A DNA stretch of 64,000 nt from Klebsiella pneumoniae (lineage in GTDB: Bacteria > Myxococcota_A > UBA9042). The position numbers and the translations under genes were made by a program. This document shows positions 35,001 to 63,000 of this stretch, piece after piece (the stretch's first letter is position 1; every line of letters begins with the position of its first letter). The notes below the pieces were generated by a model. The model saw only the letters and a program-made list of their open reading frames with translations, did no database searches and was not told where the DNA came from. The DNA lies in the NCBI GenBank assembly GCA_945889325.1, contig CAMDBH010000008.1, positions 10,118 to 74,117 of the forward strand, in the 5' to 3' direction.

Positions 35001-36728
35001 CTAGCGAACCATGAACCAAATTGGGGCGGCCTTGCAAAAACCGGCAATGCATTTGGTGCCTTGGAGCGCCGCGTTGCCTTCGGTATCCGTATAATTGTTA
35101 GTGCCATCCTGCCCGCTCCACATGTCCAACCATTGATCACTGTTGGCGTGTTGCTCCGAGATACCGTTGCCGGTGTAATAGTGAATTTGGCCCACGAGCG
35201 ACGGCCCCGTAACGACACCGGCGACATATCTGGTTAAGCCACCGACCGCGGGATTGTTGCTGACGTTGGCTCCGTTCAAGAAGGATGTAAATTCGGCGGC
35301 GGCGGCTTTGTCATAGGTCACGAAGATCGTTGCAGGTACCTTGAAACGCCACAGCGCGGTGGTCCATGCAAGCGCGGACGGCACCGCAGAAGCGCAGCTG
35401 GCGTCGAGGCTGTTGGCGCATCCGAGGTTGCCAGTTCCGCTCCACGTAACAAATCCAGGTTCAACTTTGGTGTAAACGAGCGTCCAACCGCCGCCGAGTG
35501 TGTCCATGTCACAATAAGCTTGGTACGGCGCGCCTAGTCCTGGACCGTCAGGATCGATCCAGTAGCTCCCCGATTTGGCTGCCGGCACCTTCTTTATCAG
35601 GTCCAAGCAGGAAAGCGCGGGGGTTGGTTGGGTTCCAAGTGCGCTCATGGTGATCGGAAAATACAAAGCGCCATTGCAAATATACAGCGTATTGTCCGCC
35701 TTGCTTGCATAGGCCCACCCGAAGTGCGCGCCGTCACAGGCGATTGGTGCCTTATCCGCGACGGGAAACATGAAACTGCCGATTTTGGGCGCCGTCACGG
35801 CGCCATCGGCGATTTGGGCCGAAGCTACTGCGGCGCTGCCAATTTTGCCGTTGGTCACGGCGCCGTCCGCGATAGATGCGGACGACACGGCATTTGGACC
35901 AATTTTTCCGGCAACCACGGCGCCATCGGCGAGTTTGACAGCGGAAATTGCGTTTGCAGTAATCATGTCGCCCACCACACATCCTGTGCAATCCAGCGCG
36001 CTTGCAGAATTTGCGAATGACGCTGCGCCACCCTTCTTGTCGCTCGCGGCATAATTGAAATTGACCTTGGCTAACGTCACCGCGCCGTCGGCCAACTTTT
36101 CAGTTGTCACTGCGGCGTCCGCGATTTTTGCTGTGGTCACGCTACTGTCCGTCAATTCGGCCGTGTCCACGCAACCAGAGCATTGCAGGTCGCTTGCGCT
36201 GGTCGCGGCACCACCCTTGGCGTTTGAGCCAGCGTAATTAAAGCCGACCTTGTCGGCAGTGACCGAGCCGGGAGCCAGACTTTCAGGACCGAGTGGTTTG
36301 GTAATCGCATCAGCTATTGCGGCGTGTTGTGCTTCAGACGTCGCGATCGCATAGGGCACGCTGGACACGCGTTGCCGCGGCAGCTCGGGCTCGCCGTTGA
36401 CGGAGACTCCTTCCCACAATTCCACATTCTTATTAAATAAATCGGTAGTTAGTGGGTTTTTCGCGTTGCCACCCAGCGACATCGCGAAAAGGCCGTCTTT
36501 TACATTTAGGGCGACGAACCCCTCACTCCAAACCGAATCGACGGCGCTCTCACTGGCGTACAGCGATGCGATGAGGCCATATTTGCCATCGCTTACTGGG
36601 CCGCCGGCGTTTGTGACAAGGCGTCCTTGGTGCGCGATGAGCAGCGGCGCGGCCAGCGCAGCGCTGGCACCTATGCCGACTTCAAGCCAACACAGGATCG
36701 ACACCGCATGCACAATTTTCCTCAACAT
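35001..36728 (-). CDS. Secreted fibre-like repeat protein with a fibrinogen-related (FReD-like) C-terminal domain
   Basis: The signal reads MLRKIVHAVSILCWLEVGIGASAALA. Fibre-type repeats are present (IADAAVTTEKLADGAVTLAKV, LADGAVVAGKIGPNAVSSASIADGAVTNGKIGSAAVASAQIADGAVTAPKIG). A unit of about 60 aa is duplicated (FNYAGSNAKGGAA...CSGC / FNYAASDKKGGAA...CTGC). The C-terminal signature is SCLDLIKK...SGSYWIDPDG...YQAYCDMDTLGGGWTLVY. Confidence 0.7.
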   Translation of the reverse strand: MLRKIVHAVSILCWLEVGIGASAALAAPLLIAHQGRLVTNAGGPVSDGKYGLIASLYASESAVDSVWSEGFVALNVKDGLFAMSLGGNAKNPLTTDLFNKNVELWEGVSVNGEPELPRQRVSSVPYAIATSEAQHAAIADAITKPLGPESLAPGSVTADKVGFNYAGSNAKGGAATSASDLQCSGCVDTAELTDSSVTTAKIADAAVTTEKLADGAVTLAKVNFNYAASDKKGGAASFANSASALDCTGCVVGDMITANAISAVKLADGAVVAGKIGPNAVSSASIADGAVTNGKIGSAAVASAQIADGAVTAPKIGSFMFPVADKAPIACDGAHFGWAYASKADNTLYICNGALYFPITMSALGTQPTPALSCLDLIKKVPAAKSGSYWIDPDGPGLGAPYQAYCDMDTLGGGWTLVYTKVEPGFVTWSGTGNLGCANSLDASCASAVPSALAWTTALWRFKVPATIFVTYDKAAAAEFTSFLNGANVSNNPAVGGLTRYVAGVVTGPSLVGQIHYYTGNGISEQHANSDQWLDMWSGQDGTNNYTDTEGNAALQGTKCIAGFCKAAPIWFMVR

Positions 36729-36795
36729 GATGAACTCCATAGGTGGGGAATCGCGCGCAGGTACGTAAAACGCTAAAAAACAAACAATATCAGGG

Positions 36796-36818: not shown

Positions 36819-38948
36819 TTACTTTTGAGTCACGGTGACGCGACGGTGCACGGGGATGTCTCCAAATTTCTGTACCGTCCCGTCGGGCCAACTGATCGAC
36901 AATTCTTCCACTTTTTGCGCGTTCCCCAAGCCAAAGAGCGCGGCAGCTTCGTTGGTGCCCCAAAGGCCGGTCGAGCCCGCGTCAATCTGTCTAATTTGAT
37001 TCACTTTACCGGCTTTGATTGCCACGGTTGCTCCGATGCCGCGGCTGTTACCGCCCTTGCCAATCAGGCGGACGTGTAACCAGCCGCTACTATCGCAGCC
37101 GTTGCGGTAAACCCTAGGTGCCCCATAGACTTGGCCCACCACGAAATCTGCAAAACCGTCGTTGTCCAAGTCACCCCAACTCGGTGATCGACTTGGTCCT
37201 TCCCAGTTCACCCCGGCGGATGCACCTTTGTCGCTAAATGTCCCGTCGCCATTGGCATGAAATAAATTGTCATTTTGTAACTTGGGTCCGCTCACCGTGA
37301 TGCCGCCACCACCGAACTTTTCGTCGCCAAATCCGGGTTTCAGATAACCATTGGCGATGAACAAGTCCAACCACCCGTCGTTGTCAAAGTCCACGAAGAG
37401 CGTGCCCCATGACACATAATTTTCACCGGGATACCAAACTTTTGCGTCGCCGGTCTTGTCTTCAAACGTCAACGCGCCGGTATTGGCCATTAGAAAATTA
37501 CCGTTGGTCCGCCCCGTGATGTACACGTCGAAATCGCCGTCGCGATCGTAATCACCAACGGCGAACCCCATGCCATTGGCCGCGATGTCCAAGCCTGAAT
37601 CGAATGCGACGTCGACGAATTTGAATGGCGCACCCGGACCCGCGGTGTCGTTGCGCAACATTTGGTTACCACCATACATCTGTCCAAAATCATTAACTAA
37701 ATATAGATCCAAGTCGCCATCGCCGTCGGCGTCAAACCACGACCCGAGATAACACGGATGCAATTTCTTGAGCGGCAACGTTTCAGATTCATCGATAAAG
37801 TTCCAATTGCCCTTGTTTCGATACAACTTGTGTTTGTAGAGCGGCGGCGGAAAAACCTCGGCTCCCGCCGGTTTTTCGATTTTATTAGCAACAACAACGA
37901 GATCGAGCAAACCGTCGCGATCGACGTCACCAGCCGCCGCGGCCTGAAACGGCAAGCCGGTCAGCTTGTCCATGCCCAGCGCCGCCGTCATATCCGTGAA
38001 TTTTATGCCATTAACGGTTGAAGGGCCGTCGTTGCGCAACACGCGAAGCGAGTTTCCGCTGACCACGAGATCGGGATCGCCGTCCCCATCAAAATCGGCA
38101 GCCAAAGCGGCGGTTTCCTCGATCGTCGTCGACTCAACGTCGTAACCGACGTATTTCCAGGGAGCACTCGCGAGGTAAATCCGATCTTTACCTGTCGCTT
38201 CCGGGATGTACATGTCTAACAAACCGTCGCCGTTGAAGTCGGCCAAGGCGATGCCCGTGCCGACCCGCACCTCAGCATCCGGATACGCGGAGTTTTTTGG
38301 CCACAAGGTCGGCGTCACGAAGTCAATCCCAGACGCAGCGGCAACTTCTGTGAACACACCCGCAGGTTTGCCTGTTGCGTTGGCCGGACAATAAATCGGT
38401 GCCGACGCGCTTAATCCGGCAGGTGGGAGCCAAGGATCGACAACCGCCGAGATTTCTCCAGCTGCGTCGGCGACGACTTCATCGCTAATTCCGTCAGCAG
38501 GTTGCGCTACGTCGCCGCTGTCGACCTCAGATTTTGTAATCGAATCCGCGTCAGATGGGCCGACCTCGATGTCATCCGGCGTGGCGTCGGTGTCGGCGCC
38601 GCCCGTTGCATAGCCGACGTCTACTTGATCGCTCTTAATCTCGCTTTCCGTCGTCTCTGGAGTAGCCGTACCGTCAAGACCGGCGACGTGATCAATCGGT
38701 GCGTCATCGTTGGCGGAAGCGTCATAGAATTTGTCGCTTTGCTCATCGACGTCGTAAGAATCCGTGCCGTTTTTTGCGTCGGCGCCGAAATCGAACGGTG
38801 CATCGGCGAAATCATTGACGGCGCTGTCCAGCGCGACGACCGCATCTTCGACGCTAGCCGGCCCAGAACCACAACAAACCGTTGTCGGGCTGAAGGTTAG
38901 CACCAACAGCACCAAATATTTACGGAATTTTGTAGACGGCGAGGTCAT
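36819..38948 (-). CDS. CRTAC1-family FG-GAP/VCBS repeat protein with UnbV/ASPIC C-terminal domain
   Basis: There are at least 7 Ca-binding FG-GAP loops (DFNGDGLLDMY, DFDGDGDPDLVV, DVDRDGLLDLVV, DADGDGDLDLYLVND, DYDRDGDFDVYI, DFDNDGWLDLFI, DLDNDGFADFVV). The C-terminus reads GATVAIKAGKVNQIRQIDAGSTGLWGTNE...LSISWPDGTVQ. An acidic low-complexity N-terminal region follows the signal. Confidence 0.8.
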   Translation of the reverse strand: MTSPSTKFRKYLVLLVLTFSPTTVCCGSGPASVEDAVVALDSAVNDFADAPFDFGADAKNGTDSYDVDEQSDKFYDASANDDAPIDHVAGLDGTATPETTESEIKSDQVDVGYATGGADTDATPDDIEVGPSDADSITKSEVDSGDVAQPADGISDEVVADAAGEISAVVDPWLPPAGLSASAPIYCPANATGKPAGVFTEVAAASGIDFVTPTLWPKNSAYPDAEVRVGTGIALADFNGDGLLDMYIPEATGKDRIYLASAPWKYVGYDVESTTIEETAALAADFDGDGDPDLVVSGNSLRVLRNDGPSTVNGIKFTDMTAALGMDKLTGLPFQAAAAGDVDRDGLLDLVVVANKIEKPAGAEVFPPPLYKHKLYRNKGNWNFIDESETLPLKKLHPCYLGSWFDADGDGDLDLYLVNDFGQMYGGNQMLRNDTAGPGAPFKFVDVAFDSGLDIAANGMGFAVGDYDRDGDFDVYITGRTNGNFLMANTGALTFEDKTGDAKVWYPGENYVSWGTLFVDFDNDGWLDLFIANGYLKPGFGDEKFGGGGITVSGPKLQNDNLFHANGDGTFSDKGASAGVNWEGPSRSPSWGDLDNDGFADFVVGQVYGAPRVYRNGCDSSGWLHVRLIGKGGNSRGIGATVAIKAGKVNQIRQIDAGSTGLWGTNEAAALFGLGNAQKVEELSISWPDGTVQKFGDIPVHRRVTVTQK

Positions 38949-39150
38949 CTTTGGCCAAATGCGCGCAGTTTGCAACGGCACGATTTGCAGCATAACAATT
39001 GCGCTGCCGCTTGTCAGCGTTGGCCAAATTGGCAGGGCCGGGCGCGATGTTGGAGATCAAAGATTGCGAATCCTCGTCGATGCGCTATCGCGCGTAGTGC
39101 GGGTCTGCCCCGCCGCGGAACGCAGGCCCTGTGGCGCGGGAAAAAATCGG

Positions 39151-41284: not shown

Positions 41285-42316
41285 TCAAAAAATATTTTTT
41301 CCCATAGTGCTAGCCACTTTGGCTCGCACTGCAAGCACGGCCGGTGCGGCCGAGCCACCGTTGCCGCGCACTCCTGCCCGACAAGGAAACGCGAGAAATG
41401 GAAAAACCACCGCTCTGGCTCGACGGCCATTGCGCCCGCGTTGTTCTTGAGCGCGCAACTCTTGGCGGGCCAGGTCGTATTCATCCTCAAATGCCTGAAA
41501 CCGTTTGATGTATTCGTCCCGATCGCGTGCCGTAGGGGCGTGCACGATAGGTTTTCGGCGCGGGAGGGGCGGTGGTGCCGAGCGCTGCGGTTGATCTGGT
41601 GGGTCAGTTTGACTAGATTTATCAATTGGTTGTGGGGTGTCCTCGCCTTCGATGGCTTTGGTTCGCCGTTCAGAGATGTCCTTTGCAATATCCTGATATA
41701 ATTTGTGAAAAACATCGTCGGCCAATCCTTCGTGGCACGGCAAACGCGACATCGTGACGCTGACGCGTTTGCCGTAGGCTTCATCGACCTTCGGCCCCGA
41801 TTTCCGGCGCGCGTCCAACGTTCTGGCCGTTTGATCGAATTTCGTGCCATCGATCGAATCTCCGCGCAACATCCAAGGCAAGCTGCTTGCACCGCGGAAC
41901 TCGCTGGGATGTGAAGCGAGTCCGGCCTTGACCGCTTGTCCCATGATATAATCGATCCGTTTCATCAGGGTTGTCTCATCGATGACGACCGGAATGACAT
42001 GCGCGCTGCTGTTCCAAACTGGGCCGCGTCGGTTGTGGCGCCGGTTGGCAATACGCGCCAACGCCGCGTGAAGATGATTGAGAAATTTTGCCATTGTTTC
42101 AGGATCGGGAGCCCAGTATAGCCCGTGGTAGTGGTTAGAAAGCATGTGATAGGCGTAGATCTTCACAGGGTGCCGCAACTGTGCCGCTGCGAAGGCGCCA
42201 TTTATTGCTGCAGTTTGTGCGGGGTCGTCATCGTGAAACCAGAAGGTCCCCTCTATGGTCCTGATTGTGACCTCGAAAAATAGGTCTTGGGCGTACATGC
42301 GGATTGGATGCGACAT
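41285..42316 (-). mobile_element. HUH/Y1 tyrosine transposase-like gene (IS200/RayT-like), solitary, with a long C-terminal extension
   Basis: The HUH motif is LSNHYHGLYW. The Tyr helix is RIDYIMGQAVKAGL, compared with YIxxNPVKAGL in RayT-like proteins. The protein is 343 aa against about 150-190 aa for typical members. I saw no terminal hairpins or a second IS gene. Confidence 0.6.
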
Positions 42317-43281: not shown

Positions 43282-43364
43282 GACCCAACGGCATCGATCT
43301 TACTTGCGAGATCCGCGACGAAACGCCATGATAGCGAAGCCCTTCATGGGCGTTGGGTTCAATC

Positions 43365-46300
43365 ATGCGCACGTCAAGCCAACGAAACGATCTGGTGGCC
43401 AATATCTTCGCCCTAGGCGCGGCCACATTGAGCGCGGCCCACTGTTCCGGCACGGCCGGCAATGGCGGATCGCCAGATGCGGAATCCGATGTAATTACAG
43501 TGGAGTTGTCGATTTCCGACTTAGGTAAAGCACCATCGGACGCGACGGTCGATACGGCGGTGCCGTCAGACACAGCATCAGAAAATGACAGCGCATCCGA
43601 CGTCATCAGCAGCGACAGCCAAGGGAAATGCCCCGGCGCATCTGGCTGTGTGTGCAAAGAAAACGGCGACTGCGACAACGCCAAATGCATCGAAACCGGC
43701 AGCAGCAAGGTGTGCGCAACGCCGTGTGTCGACAAGTGTGAAGACGGCTACAAATGCACGCTGATCAACGGCACAAACGGCGATTCGTCAACGATCTGCG
43801 TACCCAAATTCCTGCACTTGTGCGATCCGTGCGTGAAATCAAAAGATTGCCAGACGCTCGGCAATGGTGACGCGGCCTGCGTCAACGAGGGCGGTCAAGG
43901 CAACTTTTGCGGCACCGCTTGCGGTACGGACGCCGATTGCGCGGCCGGTTACAGTTGCCAAAACGTGATTTCTGTCGAAGGCGCCCCAATAAAGCAGTGC
44001 GCCAAGACGTCGACGGCTCCTGAATTGAAGTTCGGCGAATGCATTTGTAGCGACCTAGCCACAGGACAAAAGCTGCAAACAAGTTGTTTTGTCGAGCACA
44101 AAAATGACAAGGGCGAACTCACCGGCAAATGTGCGGGCGTTAGGGTCTGTGCCGCCACAGGACTTACGAGCTGCGCCGCACCGGCGCTGGACGTTGAGGT
44201 TTGCGACGGCAAGGACAATGACTGCGACGGCAGCACAGACGAAAATACCTGCGACGCTGGCGGTGCTTGCAATGTGGGCTCTTGCGATCCGCAGGCGGGA
44301 TGCCAGTACAACAAGCTCAACAATGTGCCATGCGACGCAGACAAGAATGCCTGTACTGATAATGATCAGTGCAAACAAGGTGTTTGTGTGCCTGGGGCCG
44401 GCAAAATCTGCGATGATGGCAACCCTTGCACGACGGACAGTTGCGATCCGGCGAGCGGCTGCACGAAAACCAGCGACGACGGCAAAGCGTGCGACGCGGA
44501 CGGCAATGCATGCACGGCCGCCGATCATTGTGTTGGTTCAACCTGCACCGTCGGCAAGATCGTTGTATGCGAGAACACCGATTCCTGCAAAAAGGCCACC
44601 TGTGATCTAACTACAGGTAAATGCATCGGTAAATCGCTCCAAGACGGCGTCCCCTGCGACGATGCCACGGTGTGCACGCAAGGCGATCACTGCCAGTCGG
44701 GTGAGTGCTTGGGCAAGATTGTCAGCTGCGATGACAACAATCCGTGTACCGGCAATATTTGCGATGCCATCAACGGCTGCAGCACGTCGAATTTGGAGGG
44801 CATCGCTTGCGATGACGATAACCCGTGTACGATCGGGGACTTGTGTAAAGGTGGCCTTTGTGCAAACGGCGCCCTGAAGGTGTGCAACTCCGGGATGGCC
44901 TGCACGCTGGGCACATGCGATTTGGCAAATGGCAAGTGCAATTACAAGAACAAGGCCCTCGGCGCGCCCTGCAATGACGGCGACGCGTGCTCGGAAAACG
45001 ATGGCTGTGCCGACGGCGCGTGTCAGGGAAAAGCGCTGAATTGTGATGACTCAAACGCTTGCACAAACGACAGTTGCGACATGCTTGTGGGTTGCGCGCA
45101 CAAACCCAACGTGTCGCCGTGTTCCGATGGCGACGCCTGCACGCAGAGCGACAACTGCGTGAACAGCGCGTGCATCTCCGGACCCAACAAAGTTTGCGAG
45201 GACGGCGTTCTCTGCACCGCTGACACCTGCAACAAGACCAGCGGCGCATGTGTTTTTGATGCGGTCGGCATCAACGGGACGCCGTGCGATGACGGCAACG
45301 TTTGCACGCTCGGGGACAACTGCAAAAACGGCCTTTGCTCGGTCGGCATCGTCAAAGATTGCAACGACAACAACGCTTGCACCGATGATTTGTGCGACAA
45401 AATCAAAGGTTGCAGCCCCAACTTCAACAGCAAAGCCTGCGACGACAGCAACGCCTGCACCAAGGACGACCTTTGTAAATTTGGCGACTGCGAGGGCAGC
45501 ATGGTCAATTGCAATGACGGCAACCCCTGCACAGACGATGCCTGCGAAGCGAAAAAGGGTTGCCTCACAGCAAGCAACACCGCATTATGCAATGACAATA
45601 GTGCCTGCACTTCTGGTGACGCGTGCAAAAACAGCGTCTGCGGCGGCGCGCCGGTGAACTGCGACGACGGAAATCCCTGCAGCGACGATAGTTGTGATAA
45701 AACAGCCGGTTGTGTAAATACGCCCAACGCTGCGCTCTGCCCAGACAACGATGCGTGCACGACCGCTGAAACATGTAAGAATCTCAATTGCATCAAAAAG
45801 GCCACCGTCTGTGACGACGCCAACGAGTGCACGATTGACACCTGTGACGGCGTAAAAGGTTGTCAAGTGGCCAATATGGTAGACAAAAGCTTATGCGCCG
45901 GTGGCGCAAAATGGTGCGTGGCAGGAAGTTGCGTCGCCAAGGCGTTCTGCGGCGACGGTATTGTCAATCAAGCGACCGAGGACTGCGACGATGGCAATTT
46001 GGTCGACAACGACGGTTGCAACAATGCGTGCAAGAGCACGATACCCGTAAGTTTTACCCTTAGCCCGTGCGGCGCAACTGGGCCCACCGGCCCGACCCAA
46101 GCCCAATGCGACGCCGCATACGCCGCCCAAAAGCTTGTTGTCAAAATCAACGGTGGATTTCAAGAGATTACTGTGCCAGCGACGGGCACTTATCATATTG
46201 AAGCTTATGGCGCCCAAGGTGGCGGCAACGGCGGCAACGGTGCCAAGGCCACGGGCGATGTCACGATCCAAGCTGGGACGGTTTTACGTTTCATGGTTGG

Positions 46301-46883
46301 TCAGATCGGTCTCGCCGCACCGGCGCAGGTTGGCAATGGCGGTGGCGGCGGGTCGTTTGTCGCGACGGCTGCCAACGTGCCGTTGGTGATTGCCGGCGGC
46401 GGCGGTGGTTGCGGCCACAACACCTGGAATGGCGGGCCTTGGGCCGAGCTCACCGGACGGGCGGGCAACGACGGCGGCGCAGGCATGTACGTCGGAGGCA
46501 ATGGTGGCGTCGGTGGCGCTGGCGGAAAATTCAGCATAACCACAGGCAACGGCACGCCCAATGGCGGCGGCGGTGGCGGTTTCAACGGCGATGGCGGCAG
46601 TTCCGGCGCGTCGACGGGAGGCAAGTCCTTTGTCAACGGCGGCGCTGGTGGTAATTCTACGGGTGGTTTCGGCGGCGGCGGTGGATCCAACGTCTTTATT
46701 TACGGCTGCGGCGCATCGCCCCACGGTGGCAGCGGCGGCGGCGGTTACTCCGGCGGCGGCGGCGGCGGCGACAATTGCAACGGCCCGGGCGGCGGCGGTG
46801 GCTCCTATGTAAGCGGCGCCAACACTGCGATGACTGCCGGTGCAAACGCGGGCGCGGGCAAGATCATCTTCACCAAACTGTAG
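43365..46883 (+). CDS. Giant secreted Cys-rich repeat protein 1, with a C-terminal ALK/LTK-type glycine-rich domain
   Basis: The signal reads [27 protein letters not shown]. The N-terminal Cys module carries a MopE-type motif ([14 protein letters not shown]). About 20 four-Cys repeats of about 25 aa follow (CDDxNxCTxDxCxxxxGC). One myxo-type repeat is present ([28 protein letters not shown]). The last 280 aa are Gly-rich with the motifs [14 protein letters not shown] and [17 protein letters not shown]. Confidence 0.85.
   Translation: [1172 protein letters not shown]
44250..45900 (+). repeat. In-frame tandem array of four-Cys repeats of about 25 aa (protein 1)
   Basis: The periodic pattern is C-x5-C-x4/5-C-x4/5-C, alternating CDDxNxCTxDxC and CxDGxxCTxGDxC units. 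Confidence 0.8.
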
Positions 46884-47230: not shown

Positions 47231-50200
47231 ATGAATTGTTCCAAGTCCACAGGCGAAATTCGGCGTTTCACGCGCGTTTTTACGGTTGCGATTGCGCTGG
47301 GCCTGAGCCTGTTGCCAGTCGGCTGCGGCAGTGACGAAGAAAACGCCAACCTCGGCACCGATGCCAGCGACAACGACGGCGATGCCGCGGCGAACAACCT
47401 CGACGGCGCCGATGTTGCTGATGTCGCAGTACCGATTTTAGGCCTCGATCATCTCTGCGATCCGTGCACAAAGGATAGCGATTGTGCTGGCGGGACCTGC
47501 ATCGCCGTCGGCACGCCGGCCGGCAGCAAGGGCAGTTTTTGCACTTCCGTTTGCAAGATCGACAGCGACTGCGGCACGGGCTACAAATGCTTGGACAAGA
47601 TCGCCGCAAGCGGCTCGGTCTGCGTGCCGGAAAAAGCCGAATGTGCGTGCAGCGATGCGGCCAAGAAGGCGAAATTGCAGACCGCATGCTTTGCAGCTTC
47701 ACTAGACGCAGACGGCAAGGTCGTTGGAAAGTGTGGCGGCGTAAGGACTTGTGGCGATATCGGCTTAAGCGTCTGTGACGCGCCAAACCCAGCCACTGAA
47801 ACCTGCAACGGCGTCGATGACGATTGCAACGGCACGACCGACGACATCAATGCTAGTGCTTGCGACGACTTGAACGCCTGCACCGACGACAGCTGTGACG
47901 GCAAAGCCTGCGCCCACGCCCAAAACACCAAAGCCTGTGACGACAGCTCCGCTTGCACAAAGGACGACATCTGTACTTTGGGCAGTTGCGCAGGCGCGGC
48001 CATTGTCTGCGATGACGCCAACGTGTGCACGGATGACAGCTGCGACAAGAAGTCGGGTTGTGTCAATGTGAACAACGTCTTGGGCTGCAATGACAACAAC
48101 AAGTGCACGGAAAAAGACACCTGCGCTGTCGGGCTATGCGCCGGCGCAACCGTCAGTTGTGACGACAAGAATCCGTGCACCGACGAGGCCTGCGACGTGG
48201 CCACCGGCTGTTCAAGCACCATTAACACGGTCGGTTGCACTGATGGTGACGGTTGCACGCTGGTCGACCTCTGCGTTGGCGGCAAGTGCGTTCCTGGCGA
48301 AAAACTCGACTGCGACGACAAGAATCCTTGCACCAAGGACAGTTGCGATTCGAAGACCGGAGAATGCCTGCATCCCGCAATCGCCGACGACACCGTGTGC
48401 ACGGACAACAGCGTGTGCACCACCGGCGACGCTTGCAAAGGCGGATTGTGTATTGGCAAAGCCATCGTTTGCGACGACGCCGAACTTTGCACCAAAGACA
48501 GTTGCGACCCAGCAACGGGCTGCACCGTGACGAATTTGGACGGCTTGGCTTGCGATGACGAAAATCTCTGCACCGTAGGCGATGCTTGCGCGGTGGGCAA
48601 GTGCGTTTCTGGCAAAGGCAAAGAATGCAAGTCGGCGGAATTTTGCATTGAATCTAAGTGCAACATCTTGGACGGCAAATGCAAATTGACGGCCAAAGCC
48701 GCTGGCGTGCCGTGCACCGACGGCACCGCCTGCACAGAAAAAGACGTTTGCGCGGACGGCAGTTGCGTCGGCCAGGGCGTCAATTGCGACGACAAAAACC
48801 CATGTACCCAGGACTCCTGCGATCTTGCAACCGGATGCGGACATAGCGACAGCAACCAGCCTTGCGATGACGGCAACAAGTGCACCGTTGGCGACCTGTG
48901 CAACGCCAGCGCCTGCGTGCCGGGTGGTCCGCTCAAATGCGACGACGGCAACCCGTGTACCCAAGACGCTTGCGACGGCACCAGCGGCCTGTGCGCGTTC
49001 AAGAATTTAGACACGCCTTGCGATGACGGCTCCTCTTGCACGACCGGCGAGGTTTGCAACGGCGGTGCGTGCGTCGGCAAAGCAATTAGCTGTGATGACG
49101 GAAACCCTTGCAGCGATGACGGTTGCGACGCCAAGCTCGGTTGCACGCATGTGAACAACACGGCGCCCTGCAATGATGCCAATGCTTGCACGGACTTTGA
49201 CGTTTGCGCTGCAGGCGAGTGTGCCGGCAAGAAGATTTTCGTCGCCATCTATTGCGACGACGGCAATATTTGTACAAACGACGGCTGCGACAAGAAATTT
49301 GGCTGTGTCAATACGTCCAACCTAGAACTGTGCAACGACGGCAATATTTGTACCGTAGGCGATTCTTGCAAAGACACCGTCTGCTTGCCGGGCCCCAACG
49401 TTTGTTCTTGCCAGACCGACGTGGACTGCAAGAAAGAAGACGATGGCAACTTCTGCAACGGCACGTTGTTTTGCGACAAGTCCAACGGCCTGAACAAATG
49501 CAAGGTCAATCCGGCAACCATCATCACTTGCCCGACCGGCAATGACAACGAATGCCAAAGCAACGAATGTGACCCGCCCACGGGCAAGTGCGCCCTGGCC
49601 GCGCAGAATGAAGCCAAGCCTTGTGATGCCGACGGCAGCGTTTGTACCGTCGGAGACATCTGCAAGAGCGGCCTGTGCACCATCGGACCATTGCAGACTT
49701 GCGATGACGGCAACGGCTGCACCAGTGATTCCTGCGATCCGAAAGCCGGTTGCTTGCACACGGCCAATGCCACGCCCTGCGATGCCGACCAAAATGCCTG
49801 CACCGTCGGCGACGTTTGCGCCGACAAGGTCTGCCAGAAGGGGCCCCTCAAACAATGCTCGGACGGCCAAGTTTGCACGTTGGACAGTTGCGACATCAAA
49901 ACCGGTAATTGCGTCTTTGACGCCGTCGCGCAGGAGGGCGCGGCTTGCGATGCCGATGGCAGCGTTTGCACGATCGGTGACACTTGCAAAGCGGGCGTCT
50001 GCGCTGCCGGCAAGGCCGCCAATTGCGATGACGCCAATCCTTGCACCAACGACAGCTGTGACAACAAACTCGGCTGCCAAAATGTTGCAAATACAGCCGC
50101 TTGTGATGCGGACAAAGATGCCTGCACGGTCGGCGACGTTTGCGCGGACAAGGTTTGCCTCAAAGGCAAAGCGACGACTTGTGACGACGGCAACCTCTGC

Positions 50201-51862
50201 ACAAGTGACGCCTGCGACGCGGCGAGCGGCAACTGTTTGGTCGCCAACCTGGCCACGCCGTGCAACGACGGTTCCGTTTGCACCACCGAGGATGTTTGCA
50301 CAAACGGCGCCTGCGTCGGCGTCCAAGTGCAATGCGATGACAAGAACCCGTGCACAAATGACGTGTGCGACCCCAAACAGGGCTGCACGTACACCAACAA
50401 TACGGTGCCTTGCGATGACAAGAACGCCTGCACTGACTTTGACATTTGCGGCAGCGGCGCCTGCAAAGGCACGCCAAAGGTGCCCGCCACCGATTGCGCG
50501 GATGGCAACGATTGCACCGACGATACGTGTGACCCTGCAACGGGTTGCGTGCACACCAACAACACTGCGCCTTGCGACGATGGCAACAAGTGCACCAACG
50601 CCGACAAATGCGCCGCCGGAAAATGTGTAGGCGGCGCCAGCATTTGTGCGTGCCAGAAGGACTCGGATTGCGCAGGCCAAGAGGACGGCAATTTCTGCAA
50701 CGGCACCTTGATCTGTTCCAACAACAAGTGCGCCATCAATCCGGCTTCGGTGATCGTCTGCAACGCGTCTGGCGATAATGCTTGCACCAAGAATACTTGC
50801 ACGCCATTGACCGGCAAATGCGCGATGGTATCGCAAAATGAGGCTGGGCCTTGCAGCGACAGCAGCGTTTGCACGCAGGGCGACATCTGCAAGGCCGGCG
50901 CGTGCATACCGGGCGCTCAGGTCAACTGCGACGACGGCAATTTGTGCAGCAACGACAGTTGCGATGCGATCAGCGGTTGCGTGCACACGGCCAATGCGCT
51001 GCCTTGCAACGCCGACAGCAATCTGTGCACCGTCGGCGACGCTTGTGCTCTTAGCGCCTGTAAAGCGGGGCCTGCCAAAGACTGCAACGACAAAAATGCT
51101 TGCACAAACGACAGTTGCACAAAAGCTACCGGCAACTGCGTCAACGATGCAGGGGCTCTGCAATTTCAGCCGTGCAACGACGGCAACGCGTGCACAACGG
51201 GTGACGTGTGTCTGGCGGGCACATGCACACCTCAGGGCAACAAAAATTGCAACGACTTCAACGTGTGCACCGACAACGCCTGTGATCCGGTGAAAGACTG
51301 CGTGTTCACCGCCAATGTGCTGCCGTGCAATGCCGACAACAACGCGTGCACGGTTGGCGACACTTGCGCAGCCAGCGTCTGCGTGGCCGGCGCAGCCAAA
51401 GTGTGCAACGACAACCTGCCCTGCACGCAGGACTCTTGCAGTACGCAAAGTGGCAATTGCTCGTTCCAGTCCGGCCCCTTGGACGGCAAGAGCTGCGACT
51501 TTGATCAGAGCGTTTGCACAGTCAACGACTTCTGCAACAACGGCTTGTGCAACGCCGGGCCCAAAGTCAACTGCGGCGACGGCAACGTCTGCACCGACGA
51601 TACGTGCGACGCGGTCAAGGGCTGCCAGCATGGTGCCAATACTGCAGGCTGTAACGCCGACAACAATGCCTGTACGGTCAGCGATGTATGTGCGGCCAAG
51701 GTGTGCACGCCAGGTCCGGTGAAGAACTGCGACGACCTCAACGTTTGCACCGTCGATTCTTGCAAAACGCAAAATGGCGATTGTAGCCATAATCCTCAGC
51801 CGCTTATTGGCTCGGTCTGTGCGCTCGGCAAGAAATGCAGCAACGCTGGCGTTTGCCAGTAA
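47231..51862 (+). CDS. Giant Cys-rich repeat lipoprotein 2 (1543 aa)
   Basis: The ATG at 47231 has GGAGGAAAAG upstream. The signal with Cys reads [32 protein letters not shown]. The N-terminal module is homologous to that of protein 1 and includes [14 protein letters not shown]. About 50 four-Cys repeats follow, interrupted twice by a DDGNFCNG module of about 60 aa. Confidence 0.85.
   Translation: [1543 protein letters not shown]
47861..51859 (+). repeat. In-frame tandem array of four-Cys repeats of about 25 aa (protein 2)
   Basis: The period is the same as in protein 1. The repeats create very long stop-free antisense frames. Confidence 0.8.
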
Positions 51863-51944: not shown

Positions 51945-54900
51945 ATGTTCAGACGTGCAACCGTTGGATTTGTCTTGATATTGGCCGGATGTGAGGATGC
52001 CGTCGTCGAAGGCCCTGTGGACTTGGGCGATGCAGTTGCCGGCGATATCGCCACCGACGTTGTTCAAGACATAGCTGCCGTCGACACCGGCCCGGACGTC
52101 ACGGTCGCCGATGTCGCCGCGGCCGATCTCGGAAGTGAGGTTGCCGACGTCCCAGCCGTGGAGGAGGTCGGTCCTGATGCTGAAGTTCAGACGGAATCGG
52201 ATGTTGCGCCCGACGTCGCTGAGGATATCGCGCCAGATATCGCGCCTGACAGCGGTCCGGAGGTCGCCATCGATGCCGGTTGCCAAAACGACCTGCAGTG
52301 CGTGGTCATGGACGACGGGGATTTGTGCAACGGTATTTGGCGTTGCAAAGCAGGGACATGTGAGCCAGATCCGACGAGCGCAGTTGTCTGTGCAGCTGTC
52401 CCGCAATGCAACCTCAACATTTGTGCGCCCAAAACGGGCAAGTGCGAAGCTGGTTTTGTCATCAACGGCGTGATCTGTGACGACGGCAGTGTGTGCACGG
52501 CGAGCGACGCCTGCAACGCCGCTGGCATCTGCGTGGGCAAGGGCATTGTTTGTGATGACAAAAATGTTTGCACGACAGATAGTTGCGACAAGACGACCGG
52601 TTGCGTGTTCACGGCCAACACCATCGCCTGCGATGACGGCAACGCCTGTACCAAAGACGACGCGTGCGCGAACCAACTTTGCGGCGGTGTCGGATTCGAT
52701 TGCGACGACAAAAACGTTTGCACCGACGACCTTTGCAAACCAGTGGTCGGCTGCACCCACAGCGCCAACGCCTTGGTGTGCGACGACGGCAGCGCTTGCA
52801 CGACTGGCGATGTTTGCGCCGCCAACATCTGCGCCGGCAAAACTTTCAGTTGCGACGATAAAAACGTTTGCACCAACGACAGTTGTAACGCGGTCACTGG
52901 CTGCGTCAACGCGCCGAACAGCATCCTGTGCAATGACGGCAGCGCATGCACGGTCACCGACGGCTGCGCCGGTGGAAAATGCGTCGGCAAGGCATTGGCT
53001 TGTGATGACAGCAACCTGTGCACCGACGACGCCTGCAACCCTGCAAGTGGCTGTGTGTTTTCAGCAAGTTCGATTGCCTGCGACGATGGCAGCAAGTGCA
53101 CCACAGGCGATGCGTGCGCGGCGAGTTTGTGCAAGGGTCTGGCGGTCAACTGCGATGACAGCAACCCGTGTACGACGGATGCTTGCGCGCCCGCCAGTGG
53201 CTGCACCCACGTCAACAACACAGGTCCTTGTAGCGACGGCACATTGTGCACGACAGGTGACGTTTGCAACGGCGGCCTTTGCAAAACGAGCCCCGTCAAC
53301 TGTGACGACAACAACGCCTGCACCGACGACGGTTGCGATCAAGCTGCCGGTTGCGTCCACGTGAACAACAGTGTCTCTTGCAATGATGGCACGTTATGCA
53401 CGGCCAGTGATGCCTGCGCAGCCGGCGTTTGCAAAGGCGTTGCGGTCAATTGCGACGACAGCAACGTCTGCACGTCGGACATTTGCGCTGGGCTAACGGG
53501 CTGTAAGCACAATCCAATCTTGGGCGTTTGCAGCGACAACAATGCGTGCACCAATTCTGACACCTGCACAAACGGCGCTTGCGTCGGCGGCACGGTGAAC
53601 TGCAACGATGTCAATGTTTGCACAGACGACAGTTGCGATGTGATCAAGGGGTGTCAACACGCTGCAAATACGGCTAGTTGTGATGATGGCAGCGGCTGCA
53701 CAGTCGGCGATATTTGTGCCAGCAGCCTGTGCAAATCTGGTCCGGCCAAGGTTTGCAATGACAATGACAGTTGCACGTCCGACAGCTGCTCTGGCGTGTC
53801 CGGCAAGTGCGTTTACAGCAAAATACTTGGTTGTGCCGGTGGCGGTGGCTGCAAGATCGATGCAGATTGCAACGACAACGATCTTTGTACCAACGACGTT
53901 TGCAATGTGGGCGCCGGCTGTATTTCGACGTTCAATGCCGCGGCTTGCAACGACGGCAACGCGTGCACGAGCGGCGACGCCTGCACGGTGGGGTTGTGCC
54001 AGGGCGCGGCCGCCGTCTGCGACGACAAAAATCCGTGCACCGATGATACGTGCAAAGCGGCAACCGGTTGCAGTTTCATCAATAATCTTCAGGCTTGTGA
54101 CGATGGCAGCGCTTGCACAAGCGACGACAAATGTGCCGCAGGCGTCTGCGGCGGCGCGAACATTTGCGACGACAGCAACGCCTGCACGACCGATAGCTGC
54201 GGCGCCAACAACAGTTGCGTGCACACGCCGATTGTCGGGCTCTGCGACGATGGCAACGCTTGCACGGGTGGCGACAGCTGCGCCACGGGCGCTTGCGTCG
54301 GTAAAGTCATTAGTTGCGATGACAAAAATGTCTGTACCGATGATGCTTGCTCAGCCAAGAGCGGTTGCGCCCACGTCAGCAACACTTCTGGTTGCGACGA
54401 CGGCAACAGTTGCTCCAGTGCCGACATCTGCGCCGGCGGGCTTTGCGCGGGCAAGGGCCTGATTTGCGACGACAAGAACCCTTGCACGACCGACACGTGT
54501 GGCAACAACGGCTGCATTTTTACCAATAATACAGCGGGTTGCGATGACGCCAGCGCCTGCACCAGCGGCGATGTCTGCTCTGCGGGAAATTGTTCGGGTG
54601 TCGCAATCGCTTGTGACGATGGCAATTCGTGCACCGACGACAGTTGTGACAAGGCCACCGGCTGCGCTCACGCCAACAATGCGGCGGCTTGCAGTGACAG
54701 CAACCTGTGCACGACCGGTGACTTTTGCAGTGGCGGCCTTTGCAAGGCTGGCGTGGCGAAAAGCTGCGATGATGCAAATGCTTGTACGACAGACAGTTGC
54801 GACGCAGCGACCGGCAACTGCGTCAACAGTCCGATTTTGGGTTGCGGCGCGACACCGACCTGGACGGACACTTGCAACAAAGTCATTTTGGGCAATGGCT

Positions 54901-55184
54901 GCACTGGGTGTCATGGCGGACCCGGCGGATCGGGCGGATTTTCCATGGGGCAGACCTGCGACGCGATTTACACGGGGATTGTTAATAAGACTACAAATAC
55001 ACCCAATTGTGCGTCTAAGACCTATGTCAAACCGAGTAGCGCCAGCGGCAGTTTGGTTTGGCTCAAGGCAGACCCGAATGCGGTCCAAGCGTGCGGCGGG
55101 AAAATGCCTTTGGGTTCCAGCGGCGTGTCGCAAGCCGATGCGGACATGTTGAAGGCTTGGATCGATGGCGGCGCGCTGAAGTAG
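51945..55184 (+). CDS. Giant Cys-rich repeat lipoprotein 3 (1079 aa), with a C-terminal CxxCH PSCyt1-like domain
   Basis: The ATG at 51945 has AGGAG upstream. The lipobox is MFRRATVGFVLILAGC. An acidic linker is followed by a DDGDLCNG module and about 30 four-Cys repeats. The C-terminus reads VILGNGCTGCHGG...VKPSSASGSLVWLKA...CGGKMPLGSSGVSQADADMLKAWIDGGA. Confidence 0.85.
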   Translation: MFRRATVGFVLILAGCEDAVVEGPVDLGDAVAGDIATDVVQDIAAVDTGPDVTVADVAAADLGSEVADVPAVEEVGPDAEVQTESDVAPDVAEDIAPDIAPDSGPEVAIDAGCQNDLQCVVMDDGDLCNGIWRCKAGTCEPDPTSAVVCAAVPQCNLNICAPKTGKCEAGFVINGVICDDGSVCTASDACNAAGICVGKGIVCDDKNVCTTDSCDKTTGCVFTANTIACDDGNACTKDDACANQLCGGVGFDCDDKNVCTDDLCKPVVGCTHSANALVCDDGSACTTGDVCAANICAGKTFSCDDKNVCTNDSCNAVTGCVNAPNSILCNDGSACTVTDGCAGGKCVGKALACDDSNLCTDDACNPASGCVFSASSIACDDGSKCTTGDACAASLCKGLAVNCDDSNPCTTDACAPASGCTHVNNTGPCSDGTLCTTGDVCNGGLCKTSPVNCDDNNACTDDGCDQAAGCVHVNNSVSCNDGTLCTASDACAAGVCKGVAVNCDDSNVCTSDICAGLTGCKHNPILGVCSDNNACTNSDTCTNGACVGGTVNCNDVNVCTDDSCDVIKGCQHAANTASCDDGSGCTVGDICASSLCKSGPAKVCNDNDSCTSDSCSGVSGKCVYSKILGCAGGGGCKIDADCNDNDLCTNDVCNVGAGCISTFNAAACNDGNACTSGDACTVGLCQGAAAVCDDKNPCTDDTCKAATGCSFINNLQACDDGSACTSDDKCAAGVCGGANICDDSNACTTDSCGANNSCVHTPIVGLCDDGNACTGGDSCATGACVGKVISCDDKNVCTDDACSAKSGCAHVSNTSGCDDGNSCSSADICAGGLCAGKGLICDDKNPCTTDTCGNNGCIFTNNTAGCDDASACTSGDVCSAGNCSGVAIACDDGNSCTDDSCDKATGCAHANNAAACSDSNLCTTGDFCSGGLCKAGVAKSCDDANACTTDSCDAATGNCVNSPILGCGATPTWTDTCNKVILGNGCTGCHGGPGGSGGFSMGQTCDAIYTGIVNKTTNTPNCASKTYVKPSSASGSLVWLKADPNAVQACGGKMPLGSSGVSQADADMLKAWIDGGALK
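52475..54845 (+). repeat. In-frame tandem array of four-Cys repeats of about 25 aa (protein 3)
   Basis: The period is the same as in proteins 1 and 2. Confidence 0.8.
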
Positions 55185-56575: not shown

Positions 56576-56796
56576 CACCGCCAAACGCTGACCGTTAGCG
56601 AGCGCACCGGCGCTGCGGCTTCTGCCGCCGCCTCGCCGACCGGCGTTCGTCGAAGGCACCCCTCTTGAATTTTCGCAATAAGCGACCAATGTTCTTCCAT
56701 GCCCCACCGCCAGCGCCCCACCCGCGCTGATCGCCGCCGCAAACGCCAACTTCGGTCGCTAATCTCGCCGAATCTCGGCGAATTTTGGCTTGACAC

Positions 56797-56816
56797 TTGG
56801 CATTTTTGCTGCTAAT
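56797..56816 (+). promoter_or_regulatory. Sigma-54-type promoter-like element P2 (TTGGCATTTTTGCTGCTAAT) upstream of the 998-aa lipoprotein gene
   Basis: The sequence is TGGCAT-N5-CTGCT with correct GG-N10-GC spacing, about 125 nt upstream of the ATG at 56940. The palindrome TCGCCGA-ATC-TCGGCGA lies at 56765-56781. Similarity to the P1 region extends over about 50 nt. Confidence 0.45.
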
Positions 56817-56939
56817 TCCCCCGCACCGCGCGTCACCTGCGCCAAACGGCACCGCGGTGGTTGCTGCCTGCCTGTGCCACTCTTTCTGCCCAACCGGGCA
56901 TGTTCGACCCGTGTCATCACCGGGTCTTGGATTTTTCGA

Positions 56940-59936: not shown

Positions 59937-60010
59937 CTGACGGCAGTGCTGCCTCGGCGCGGCCCGTTGCAACGTGTGTGTCTGCGCATCGCGCGCAAGT
60001 AGGTGATCAG

Positions 60011-63000
60011 ATGGTCAAATTCAGTCATGTCGCCGTTCGGTTGCTGCTTTTGTGTTTGGCGGCATCGGCTTGCGTACAAGATCGCCCGGCGCGCAACGGC
60101 GTGTTCAATGAGAATCAGTACCTACGCAAGGATTTCCTAATCCAGGCCGGCAACGGCGCGACGACGGATCCGGGCTGGTTTGTGAAAGCGACGGTGGTTG
60201 AAACGTCGTCGCCCAATCCTCTCGGCGGTGAAGCCATTGATTTGTTTCCGGGTCTTGAAAATGGCGGTGCCTACGTGCGCTTTCGCGTCACCCAAGACAA
60301 GTTGGAAATGGTCAGTTTGCGCGAACTTGGTCCAGATGCCGTCGGGAAAACCCAAACGGTTATCAATAGTTGGCCGGCGACCAACGTCGACTTGAAATTC
60401 CGCGTCAATTTAGACGGTGAGAACACCAATTTTTACGAAGAAAACCAAGAACTGGACTGGGACGTGCGTCAGTGGGTCAAATTGCAGTTTAATGTCAATG
60501 ATGGCGGCGACTTGCTGATGTTTGGACCGTACACCGGCGCGGGCTTGCAGCGCTGCACCGATCTGGGCCACGCCACGGTGACGCTGGTGCCCGATTCATA
60601 CTATGTCTTAGAAGATCAAGGCTATTTCCAATGGATCGAGGAGATTTCCTTGCCATTGCAGTGGAATGACGACACCTGTTACCAAGAATTTGGCGCAGCC
60701 GGCGATACTGCCCTGTCTTTGGGCCGTTCGCACGTGACTTTGCGCATCATGTTCAGCATGATGCGCGCCAATCCAGCGCCGACGTATCAGCCGCTGCAAG
60801 TGCAGGAAAAAGATCCGATCCACCACAAGTACGGCCCGATCGAGTTCTTAAGCATCGCCCGAGACCCGGACAGCGGTTTGCTGGCGGCGCGCAGCTTGGT
60901 CATGCGATTTGATCCCAAAAACCCGATGATGACTTGGTATTTTGCCCAAGGCTATCCAGAAGCATACAAGAAGCATTTCACCGACAAGAACGGCATCGTC
61001 GATCAAACCAATGCAATCCTGACCGCGGCCGGTGCGACCTTGCGTATGGAAGTCAAGAACTTTGATCAGGATCTGGCCAAAGATGAACGGCCACGGCAGT
61101 ACGGCGACATTCGCTACAATTTCCTGCGCTGGATGAGCGACAAGGATACCCAAGACACTTTTGCCGGTGTGGCGCAGTTCATTACAGATCCGCGGACGGG
61201 TGAGACGCTGTCAGCCTCGATCAACTTGAACGATTTTGCGATTAAAGACGAATATGTGCAGCGCATCGACTTCTATTTGCAGCAGATCGGCGCCAGCGCA
61301 AACATCAACAGCGCTGACGCTTGGCCCGACTTGTGCCCCAATGGCACCGCGCCCGCTTGCCGCAACGCCGACGATGCGGTCACGCCCTGCGCGGCCAACC
61401 AAGCCAAAGTCTGCGCCAAAGCCGCCGCAGTCGGCACGTGCGCTGAAGGTGCGGTGGCGGCGCTGGACGAGAAAAAGGTGGTGACGCTGCACAACACCAA
61501 TTCATCGCTCTTTGGCAAGATGCAGGAATACTTGCAAAAGCCGGTGGCGGATGTAGGTCCGCTTGGGCCAAAGGATTTTATCGCCAAGCAAGACCAAGAT
61601 TTTTACAACGCTTATTACGCGGTTTTGCCGTATTGGATTTACGCCGATCCGTGGATGAACTTGTTTGTCATGCCCGAAGGTCAAGACGGCGTCTACGGGC
61701 CGGAGGAAATTTGGAAGTCTTTGGCCGATGAAGCGGAATTTCACAAATTGACCGGTGCCATCGATCACGGCAAACAGCCGATTGCGGGCATGGCTGGCAA
61801 AGATGGGCTGGCCAACACCGCGGCTTTCCTTAACAAAATGAAAAAGCTCACCCGCAACCACGTCGAATTGCCGCGCAAACTGCAGCGGGCGCATAGTCGA
61901 GTCAAGAAAGACGTGCCAGCGGCGTTTTCCTTCCTAGAAATGATGAAGAAGAACGCGCGCCATTGTGTCGGCGGCAAATGGGAGACCAAGGAGCAATGGA
62001 CCCAAGCGTTTATCGATAGTTACTGGAGCCAAGTGATGTGGCATGAATTTGGCCATGTGCTAGGGCTGGAGCACAACTTCATGGCTTCGGTCGATAGGCC
62101 AAACTTTCCGACGTACAAAATCGGTGACACCACGAATGTGAGCATGTATTCGTCCAGCGTGATGGAATACAACGCCGCGCCGGATCGGGTGTTTTGGCAT
62201 CCCGGCTTTGGGCCCTACGATGCCGGTGCCATCGCTTGGATTTACGCCAACACCCAGAAAAGCGGCAAAGGCGGCAGCAGCATTTCCGGCCAAGTCAGCG
62301 CGACCGCGCCGTGGAACGACCCACTGGGCTTTAACAAAGACGGCAAGGAAACGCAGTTTTTATATTGTTCTCATCAGCACTTGCAGTATACACCCCTTTG
62401 CCGCATGGGCGATTCCGGGACCACGCCGAGCGAAATTATCGCCAACGACATCGACCGCTATGAATGGCAGTACCAATGGACCAATTTCCGCGTCTATCGC
62501 AAGTTCTGGGATCTACATGCTTATGCCGATGCGCCGGCGACGATGATAACCGAGTTGCGCCGCTTCTTGCCGATGTGGACCACCGATTGGGCGCCGGACG
62601 TGTTGGTCGACGCTTTTCGGCGGGTCGGCGTGGTCAATCCGGCGGCAAAAGGCTCTGATGTCGATTACTACGACACCTTGGTGTCAAAATTCAACAAGGA
62701 AGCGTCGCAAGCCAATCAGATGATGGCGGCTTTCCATAAGGCCGTGATTCAACAGTCTTCTGGTGAGCGACCCTTTAGCACGACCTACGACAAGTTTTAC
62801 GGCGACGTGACGCAGCAAGGCATCATTTTGGACAAACTTTTTGCGATGCAGGCCTTTGTCGGGCTTTGGCCGATCGACAATTACGACTTGAATCAAACCG
62901 AAGGCTATTACATGGCCAGTTTTTCTGAAGCAGGCGACGCGTCTTACAACGCTGTCGCCGAAGACGTCGTGGCCAGCATGATCGGCGGTCAATACGATGT

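Follow-up and report, generated by a model that had tools for sequence, protein, structure and literature searches.

The question raised by this locus is whether a long glycine-rich tail on a bacterial protein can be a genuine relative of the ligand-binding domain of the animal receptor kinases ALK and LTK, or whether it only resembles that domain through its composition. The locus lies in a stretch of 64,000 nucleotides (below called the window) of contig CAMDBH010000008.1 from assembly GCA_945889325.1, in which a plus-strand gene at 43365..46883 encodes a Cys-rich repeat protein that ends in the glycine-rich tail. A first-pass annotation, made from the letters of the DNA and their translation, had proposed that this tail is a bacterial homolog of the extracellular glycine-rich domain of ALK and LTK, carried at the tip of a Cys-repeat stalk. 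The tail is indeed a true homolog of the ALK/LTK TG (TNF-like plus glycine-rich) domain and a member of Pfam family PF12810. It forms the C-terminal 276 amino acids of the protein (residues 897–1172 of 1172; nt 46053..46880), with a stalk of ~800 amino acids before it, and it will be referred to here as the head.

Homology to ALK is evident from the sequence outside the glycine runs. With the 280-amino-acid C-terminal tail of the gene product as the query, a phmmer search of all PDB sequences returned ALK (E 2.2e-11), LTK (E 4e-7) and Caenorhabditis elegans SCD-2 (E 1e-4) as its sole matches, and the match to ALK is carried by the first 86, non-Gly residues with negligible bias. In a BLASTP comparison the head shares 40% identity with ALK across 97 amino acids (E 3e-12). 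The Pfam profile PF12810 (current name ALK_LTK_GRD) reaches 29.2 bits, above its gathering score of 24.5 (E 1.1e-6), when head residues 1–100 are scanned alone, while neither Pfam nor NCBIfam gives a match on the full 280-amino-acid domain. The missing PF12810 match on the full length is due to the composition-bias filter of HMMER, which is triggered by the Gly-rich part; the same filter hides PF12810 on 39 out of 59 clear homologs.

The relationship extends over the Gly-rich part as well. A family profile composed of the query and 58 bacterial and metagenomic homologs (59 sequences) matches human ALK end to end with an E-value of 1.5e-42 (profile positions 44–328 against chain positions 34–342), LTK with 2.5e-35 and SCD-2 with 1.5e-18, and the query itself scores 238 bits against this profile. 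As a shuffle control, a profile restricted to the Gly-rich half of the prokaryotic heads was used to score the corresponding half of ALK, without the rest of the chain. The unshuffled sequence obtained 52.1 bits, as compared to -18.0±5.0 bits (maximum 1.0) for 1000 residue shuffles and -12.4±7.0 bits (maximum 21.0) for 1000 block-of-six shuffles in which Gly runs were kept, corresponding to z values of 9–14. The order of the Gly motifs itself is conserved between the prokaryotic heads and ALK, beyond composition. According to the conservation map of the homologs, conserved Gly motifs, including NGGxGG, alternate with loops of variable length. The two Cys residues of the CGxxGxxGPTQxQC motif, Cys10 and Cys23 of the head, are present and are conserved in 39/59 and 30/59 homologs, respectively, and in ALK. 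An insertion in the Gly-rich subdomain that carries Cys223 and Cys246 is specific for the subfamily.

Structure prediction leads to the same family. From an alignment of the query with its homologs, and with no templates supplied, AlphaFold2 produced a model of the head with a mean predicted local distance difference test score (pLDDT) of 91.8, a predicted template modelling score (pTM) of 0.92 and no segment below 50; confidence is lower in the Cys223/Cys246 insertion. Beta strands are predicted at domain residues 4–118 (pLDDT roughly 95), 260–269 and 274–279, and for residues 119–259 DSSP assigns neither helix nor strand at pLDDT values that are mostly 80–98. The overall fold is predicted to be a TNF-like beta-sandwich that is interrupted by an ordered glycine-rich subdomain. 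In ALK and LTK, the TG domain is a sandwich of this kind with a lattice of extended, glycine-rich helices projecting from it. When the model was compared to the PDB with Foldseek, all 21 matches at E<=1e-3 were ligand-binding domains of ALK, LTK or SCD-2 (best E 6e-15; template modelling (TM) score 0.64–0.70 normalised on the query), and the next match had an E-value of 0.56. Since the sandwich of ~140 residues alone cannot give a TM-score of 0.70 over 280 residues, part of the glycine lattice must superpose. A polyglycine-II geometry of the Gly segments, with hexagonal packing, is only implied by the model, from this TM-score and from the missing DSSP class at high pLDDT. The AlphaFold2 weights are older than the ALK structures, which date from 2021, and as no templates were used either, the agreement in fold is not a matter of recall.

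The view that the tail is generic Gly-rich low-complexity or disordered sequence, with a resemblance to ALK that is only compositional, could appeal to the absence of a Pfam or NCBIfam match for the full 280 amino acids, and to the fact that composition-adjusted BLASTP aligns only the first 97 of them. Against it stand the E-value of 2e-11 for the non-Gly half alone, the end-to-end match of the profile to ALK, the distance between the real score and the best scores in 2x1000 shuffles, and a confident model without any segment below a pLDDT of 50 whose PDB neighbours belong exclusively to the ALK family. With homology, shuffle, model and Foldseek results pointing the same way, this reading is refuted, and we give it practically no credence. 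The first-pass annotation was correct in this respect: it had held that the last ~280 amino acids are not generic low complexity, and the motifs that it quoted are all present, in the order given, within nt 46053..46880. The human ALK strings that it cited match the PDB chain sequences verbatim, and the conserved non-Gly anchors occur in the order of ALK, in significant alignments to ALK, LTK and SCD-2 that stay collinear over their whole length. It had further suggested scanning with PF12810, which yields a score above the gathering threshold solely when the first 100 amino acids are scanned alone, and predicting the structure, which returned an ordered and confident fold with only TG domains of the ALK family as PDB neighbours. 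That the domain caps a Cys-repeat stalk at its C-terminal end is also borne out, by Pfam matches along the stalk and by a head that ends the protein.

The gene lies in a plus-strand open reading frame (ORF) at 43353..46883, which would encode 1176 amino acids when counted from the first TTG; the true start is likely the ATG at 43365, giving a protein of 1172 amino acids. Its parts are, in order:

43365..46883, plus strand: the whole gene, an ORF of 1172 amino acids plus stop, starting with the ATG at 43365 and encoding 124 Cys.
43365..43445, plus strand: N-terminal signal sequence, residues 1–27, with a hydrophobic core at residues 8–20 and Cys as its final residue.
43446..43628, plus strand: acidic Ser/Asp-rich low-complexity linker, residues 28–88, read directly from the sequence, with analogous linkers in both paralogs (see below).
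43629..45926, plus strand: disulfide-rich stalk, an N-terminal Cys module common to the paralogs followed by ~16–20 CxDxNxCTxDxC repeats.
45927..46034, plus strand: DUF4215-type Cys-rich repeat directly preceding the head (Pfam PF13948, E 2e-7, 31.6 bits against a cutoff of 27).
46053..46394, plus strand: TG head, N-terminal half of the TNF-like beta-sandwich, with the Cys pair and a VGQ motif (ALK match, PF12810).
46395..46817, plus strand: TG head, glycine-rich subdomain with 44% Gly, collinear with the glycine-rich region of ALK (shuffle control).
46818..46880, plus strand: TG head, closing strands of the TNF-like sandwich, aligned to GHGEVNIKH of ALK; end of the protein.

The stop codon at 46881–46883 follows immediately after the sequence GKIIFTKL, the last strand of the head. 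The stalk matches Pfam family PF00526 (Dicty_CTDC) in six stretches (E 3.8e-18), and 16 strict CxDxNxCTxDxC repeats occur at residues 349–827 with a spacing of ~25 amino acids. Of the 124 Cys in the whole protein 119 are located in residues 1–896, where they account for 13.3% of the positions. Downstream of the signal no hydrophobic segment was found in the 1172-amino-acid protein (maximum Kyte–Doolittle value over 19 residues, KD19, 1.35), nor did any part of it match a kinase family in Pfam. The gene product is an exported protein, composed of a signal, a linker, a disulfide stalk and a TG head, without a membrane-spanning segment. Judged from its sequence, it is possibly lipid-anchored via the Cys that ends the signal. 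Across 46053..46880, the minus strand and the remaining frames contain ORFs that are Pro/Ala/Arg-rich and lack supporting homology; they are by-products of the runs of GGN codons. Searched as an exact sequence from each of the two start codons, the protein gave no identical record, while a neighbouring gene places the organism in three metagenome assemblies.

The gene is the first of three tandem plus-strand paralogs of the Dicty_CTDC Cys-repeat type, located at 43365–46883, ~47231–51862 and ~51945–55184, which have in common a signal with Cys as its last residue, followed by an acidic linker, the N-terminal Cys module and a repeat stalk. The two downstream paralogs are almost wholly composed of Cys repeats and possess better lipoboxes (LLPVGC and LILAGC). 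The C-terminal ends differ: the first protein has the ALK-like head, the second has no distinct tip, and the third carries a tail of ~110 amino acids with a CTGCH motif. A modular family, with a common stalk and an exchangeable tip, is suggested by this arrangement. The tail of the third paralog (54840–55181, plus strand) ends in ...MLKAWIDGGALK and gives a match to Pfam Cytochrom_C that is below the cutoff (E 0.19); it may resemble the planctomycete-type cytochrome-c (PSCyt) domains.

How far the domain occurs outside animals was addressed at several levels, and here the outcome differs from what the first-pass annotation implied by treating the find as a rarity: in prokaryotes and viruses the domain forms a family of very large size, part of which already resides under PF12810. 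A word-indexed search found 595 homologs among 8000 candidates scored, some of which carry PF12810. An exhaustive profile search of 1.84 billion cluster representatives gave 16,622 matches at E<=1e-3, 9,409 at E<=1e-10 and 4,646 at E<=1e-30, and many of these representatives are giant proteins with 2–10 copies of the domain. In a scan of GTDB with one genome per species, at least 45 loci were confirmed. The bacterial loci among the matches listed come from Bacteroidota, Myxococcales, Bdellovibrionota (L027), Micavibrio (L035), Planctomycetota, Marinimicrobia, Zixibacteria, gamma- and delta-proteobacteria, and Gracilibacteria (L041, a bacterium of the candidate phyla radiation, CPR); the DPANN archaea among them are Nanohalarchaeota, Woesearchaeota and Iainarchaeum. 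Archaeal loci in metagenome-assembled genomes (MAGs) include L001, L002, L011, L014, L026 and L028, and the giant proteins of L002 and L011 have 3–4 copies each. The TG domain may be enriched in organisms that attach to other cells (DPANN, CPR, predators), in a sample whose bias is uncontrolled.

Three classes of architecture can be distinguished. The head is at the extreme C-terminus in the first class, with Cys-rich flanks in L003, L024 and L032; it directly follows the signal peptide in the second, in Bacteroidota; and the third class consists of the multi-copy giants. Tandem arrays of paralogs are frequent among the loci, and at least 15 prokaryotic loci other than the one described here have the head at the C-terminus. 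The fusion partners in the family are PKD and bacterial immunoglobulin (Ig)-like domains, pilin N-methyl segments, and PEP-CTERM and IPTL-CTERM sequences. Prokaryotic and viral relatives (P0001–P0003, L003, L024, L032, BFVD model A0A0P0YMU3 and phrog_22713) are 35–60% identical to the head over the domain, and have the same set of conserved motifs and an extracellular context. L003, in which the Cys-rich flank has 16% Cys, L024 and L032 share with the protein studied here the design of a stalk with a C-terminal head, whereas most relatives differ in the carrier, which is formed by PKD/Ig-like domains, pilin-like N-termini, PEP-CTERM/IPTL-CTERM anchors or multi-copy giants, or, in Bacteroidota, by C-terminal regions of the type IX secretion system (T9SS) instead of a CTDC stalk. 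The stalk itself is built from the Cys-rich repeats known from Dictyostelium CTDC proteins and from myxobacteria (PF00526, and PF13948 for DUF4215), and these families describe the stalk only, not the head. The protein is therewith an additional PF12810 member on a CTDC-type stalk, a carrier that recurs elsewhere.

On the viral side, 67 models in BFVD match the head model at E<=1e-3, and several of them were automatically named 'receptor protein-tyrosine kinase'. Such names, which many phage and giant-virus members carry, appear to be due to automatic propagation from the Pfam family of ALK rather than to a predicted kinase. Other BFVD relatives are named PE-PGRS or collagen-like. The head also matches phrog_22713 (E 4e-24), and six loci were confirmed in IMG/VR, one of them in a giant-virus MAG. 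Two phage-like contigs encode proteins that carry the domain as a C-terminal tip and whose N-termini match 'virion structural protein'; in one of these contigs the gene adjoins a tail-fibre gene. Such phage proteins, with a C-terminal domain beside tail-fibre genes, lend support to the idea of a binding tip that the first-pass annotation had put forward. It follows from their presence in Pfam and in names derived from UniProt that prokaryotic and viral members are already on record; that bacteria have a homolog is therefore no novelty in itself. Since the bias filter of HMMER suppresses PF12810 on 39/59 clear homologs, the family is strongly under-annotated in routine pipelines.

What the head would do can be approached by comparison with its characterised relatives. 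The TG domains of ALK, LTK and SCD-2 (PDB 7NX4, 7LRZ, 7N00, 7NX1, 7LIR) and the bacterial head have the same motif order from the first to the last strand, the same predicted fold and an extracellular location, and the 40% identity to ALK in the N-terminal 97 amino acids includes the Cys pair of the CGAxGPxGPTQAQC motif. Unlike ALK and LTK, the bacterial protein lacks a transmembrane helix, a kinase and the MAM/LDLa/heparin-binding region, it carries its head on a Cys-repeat stalk at the C-terminus, and it possesses the Cys223/Cys246 insertion. Unlike in ALK, there is no EGF-like module after the TG domain, and in the alignment the ~30-amino-acid insertion that ALK has past VGQQG is missing from the bacterial head. 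An ALKAL-type ligand is not expected for it. Among phage proteins, the tail fibre gp24 of cyanophage Pam3 has a tip in which a TNF-like sandwich occurs together with a Gly-rich lattice; the authors who described this tip compared it to SCD-2 by superposition (PMC9608196). Like the bacterial head, the glycine-rich lattices of Pam3 gp24 and of gp38 of Salmonella phage S16 are situated at the distal end of an elongated protein, but these fibres are trimers with dedicated chaperones, whereas the gene after the head encodes a paralogous stalk protein that is not chaperone-like.

We consider it most probable, with a likelihood of roughly 65%, that the protein is an adhesin or recognition protein in which a Cys-repeat stalk displays an ALK-homologous TG binding head. 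The rigid, disulfide-rich stalk of ~800 amino acids would keep the head well clear of the cell, where it would bind an external target, such as a protein or glycan on another cell, on prey or in a matrix, by means of the variable loops that separate conserved glycine motifs and/or a face of the sandwich. An adhesin or recognition protein is proposed rather than a signalling receptor because a membrane-spanning part and a kinase part are both missing. That the TG domain would serve as a binding head is an argument by analogy, which we make because the only characterised cellular members, ALK and LTK, bind their ligands through this domain (PDB complexes), because phage members occupy the tips of virion or tail proteins, because the partners in the family are uniformly surface or secretion modules, and because conserved Gly motifs with variable-length loops amount to a scaffold-plus-loop design. 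The recurrence of a C-terminal head at other prokaryotic loci, the tip of Pam3 gp24 and the different tips of the tandem paralogs on a shared stalk also speak for this role. Some observations weigh against this proposal. The lipobox of the stalk protein is non-canonical, with His at position -1. Judging from PDB titles and alignments, the ligand site of ALK also uses the EGF-like module and the insertion, both of which are missing here. Neither S16 gp38 nor Pam3 gp24 is found among the 21 significant or the top 50 Foldseek matches in the PDB, and a tblastn search of 50,697 GenBank phage records gave no match. In view of these Foldseek and tblastn outcomes, the phage analogy rests on profile- and structure-level relatives, and the viral similarity of the head is limited to uncharacterised viral proteins.

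Other functions can be envisaged for the same architecture. The flat face of a glycine lattice could act in a structural or surface-active manner, by binding ice or minerals or by scaffolding a matrix, as other polyglycine/polyproline II (PPII) bundles, among them the snow-flea antifreeze protein, work via the flat faces of their lattice (cited in PMC13243192), and the many giant members with 2–10 copies would suit a matrix or S-layer-like role. We regard this as unlikely for the present head, as its closest solved relatives are ligand-binding domains, phage members are found at the tips of virion proteins, and the alternation of Gly motifs with loops of variable length fits a binding design. 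If binding is accepted, the target could still be a small secreted bacterial protein, so that the head would be a ligand trap or co-receptor that signals through a partner in the manner of ALK and ALKAL. Cytokine binding by ALK/LTK is the sole experimentally defined cellular function of the fold (PDB titles), and a Ser/Thr kinase gene is present in the window (23720–25570). This gene is 18 kb away and its organisation is unrelated, however, and the protein itself has neither a membrane-spanning segment nor a kinase of its own. The EGF-like module and the ~30-residue ALK insertion are also lacking, and no gene for a small basic helical ligand was found in a search for ALKAL-like proteins that was limited to the immediate neighbours, which are the paralogous stalk proteins. 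A ligand trap is therefore quite improbable in our opinion.

The same set of tandem genes might also be read as a polymorphic-toxin-like system that delivers its variable C-terminal domains to other cells as effectors, with the TG head as the toxic or effector portion. Three paralogs with a shared N-terminus and stalk but different C-terminal ends would be in agreement with this, and variable C-termini on long repeat proteins are typical of polymorphic toxins. The gene that follows the head encodes a paralog of more than 1.5 kb and not a small immunity-like protein, and in other lineages the TG domain is often N-terminal or part of internal multi-copy arrays. Moreover, there are no catalytic motifs and no matches to toxin families in Pfam and NCBIfam (PADLOC and toxin libraries were not specifically searched). 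The chances of a toxin are very slim on this evidence. Compared to an adhesin with a TG binding head, the lattice-surface, ligand-trap and toxin explanations are all less likely.

The genomic setting of the locus is chromosomal, as the window contains genes for DnaK, DnaJ, a class II ribonucleotide reductase (RNR), iPGM and Dus. All named close relatives of the DnaK are from Myxococcota MAGs (best identity 81%), and on this basis the gene is assigned to an uncultured bacterium of the Myxococcota. The GC content is 0.61 at 46–48 kb and 0.54–0.64 elsewhere in the window; whether the GC content points to a recent transfer was considered, and this evidence was rejected, as the GGN codons account for the value of 0.61. 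No second copy of the domain was detected among the 353 six-frame ORFs of the window. Terminator-like sites around the gene occur at chance level (9 against 7.0±3.1 expected), as do the hits of a promoter scan.

Several neighbouring genes deserve mention in their own right. On the minus strand, 35001–36740 encodes a protein of 579 amino acids with matches to COLFI, the C-terminal domain of fibrillar collagens (E 2.4e-8, above the cutoff), and to Fibrinogen_C (E 7e-5), an extracellular type of module that is usually linked to animals. It adjoins a minus-strand gene (36819–38993) for a 724-amino-acid FG-GAP/ASPIC-UnbV repeat protein with an integrin-alpha-like beta-propeller. Downstream of the three paralogs, two large probable lipoproteins are encoded on the plus strand: one at 56790–59936, with a signal ending in ...TSAC and no Pfam match, and one at 59978–63481, with a signal ending in ...ASAC and a Met-zincin DUF4953/matrixin-like region with an HExxH motif. 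Between genes for a GNAT acetyltransferase and a GT2 glycosyltransferase, a minus-strand ORF (41285–42316) encodes 343 amino acids without a Pfam match. Its product starts with MSHPIRMYAQDLFFEVTIRT... and has an HYH-type motif; it may resemble REP/IS200-like (Y1) transposase-related proteins. The plus-strand gene at 23720–25570 encodes a eukaryote-like Ser/Thr protein kinase (Pkinase, E 8e-50) and is followed by a gene for a tetratricopeptide repeat (TPR) protein, a pair that is typical of Myxococcota and unlinked to the findings on the head.

The ligand-binding domain of ALK and LTK is of medical importance, and the literature searched treats it as an animal receptor module. Reviews on ALK describe the domain in animals only, and this literature contains no paper that combines ALK, LTK, 'glycine-rich domain' and prokaryotes. 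The locus described here is a clean and well-supported example of an ALK-type domain on a bacterial surface protein, and its annotation should be that of a probable adhesin with an ALK-like head. What seems to have received too little attention is how large the family is in prokaryotes and viruses when set against the single animal lineage, and how systematically it is under- and mis-annotated. It can be speculated, with considerable reserve, that the TG domain is primarily a surface recognition head of prokaryotes and viruses, used by phages, giant viruses, predatory Myxococcota, Bdellovibrionota and Micavibrio, episymbiotic CPR bacteria, DPANN archaea and Bacteroidota, and that the metazoan ALK/LTK domain was derived from this pool, by ancient horizontal acquisition or by exaptation into a receptor kinase. 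If this doubtful scenario is true, proteins such as the stalk-head protein would represent the living ancestral adhesin state and belong to a large, unstudied class of receptor-binding proteins. The bacterial example and the size of the family make the origin of the ALK ectodomain testable and, with bacterial heads that are simpler than ALK, also the binding function of the glycine lattice.

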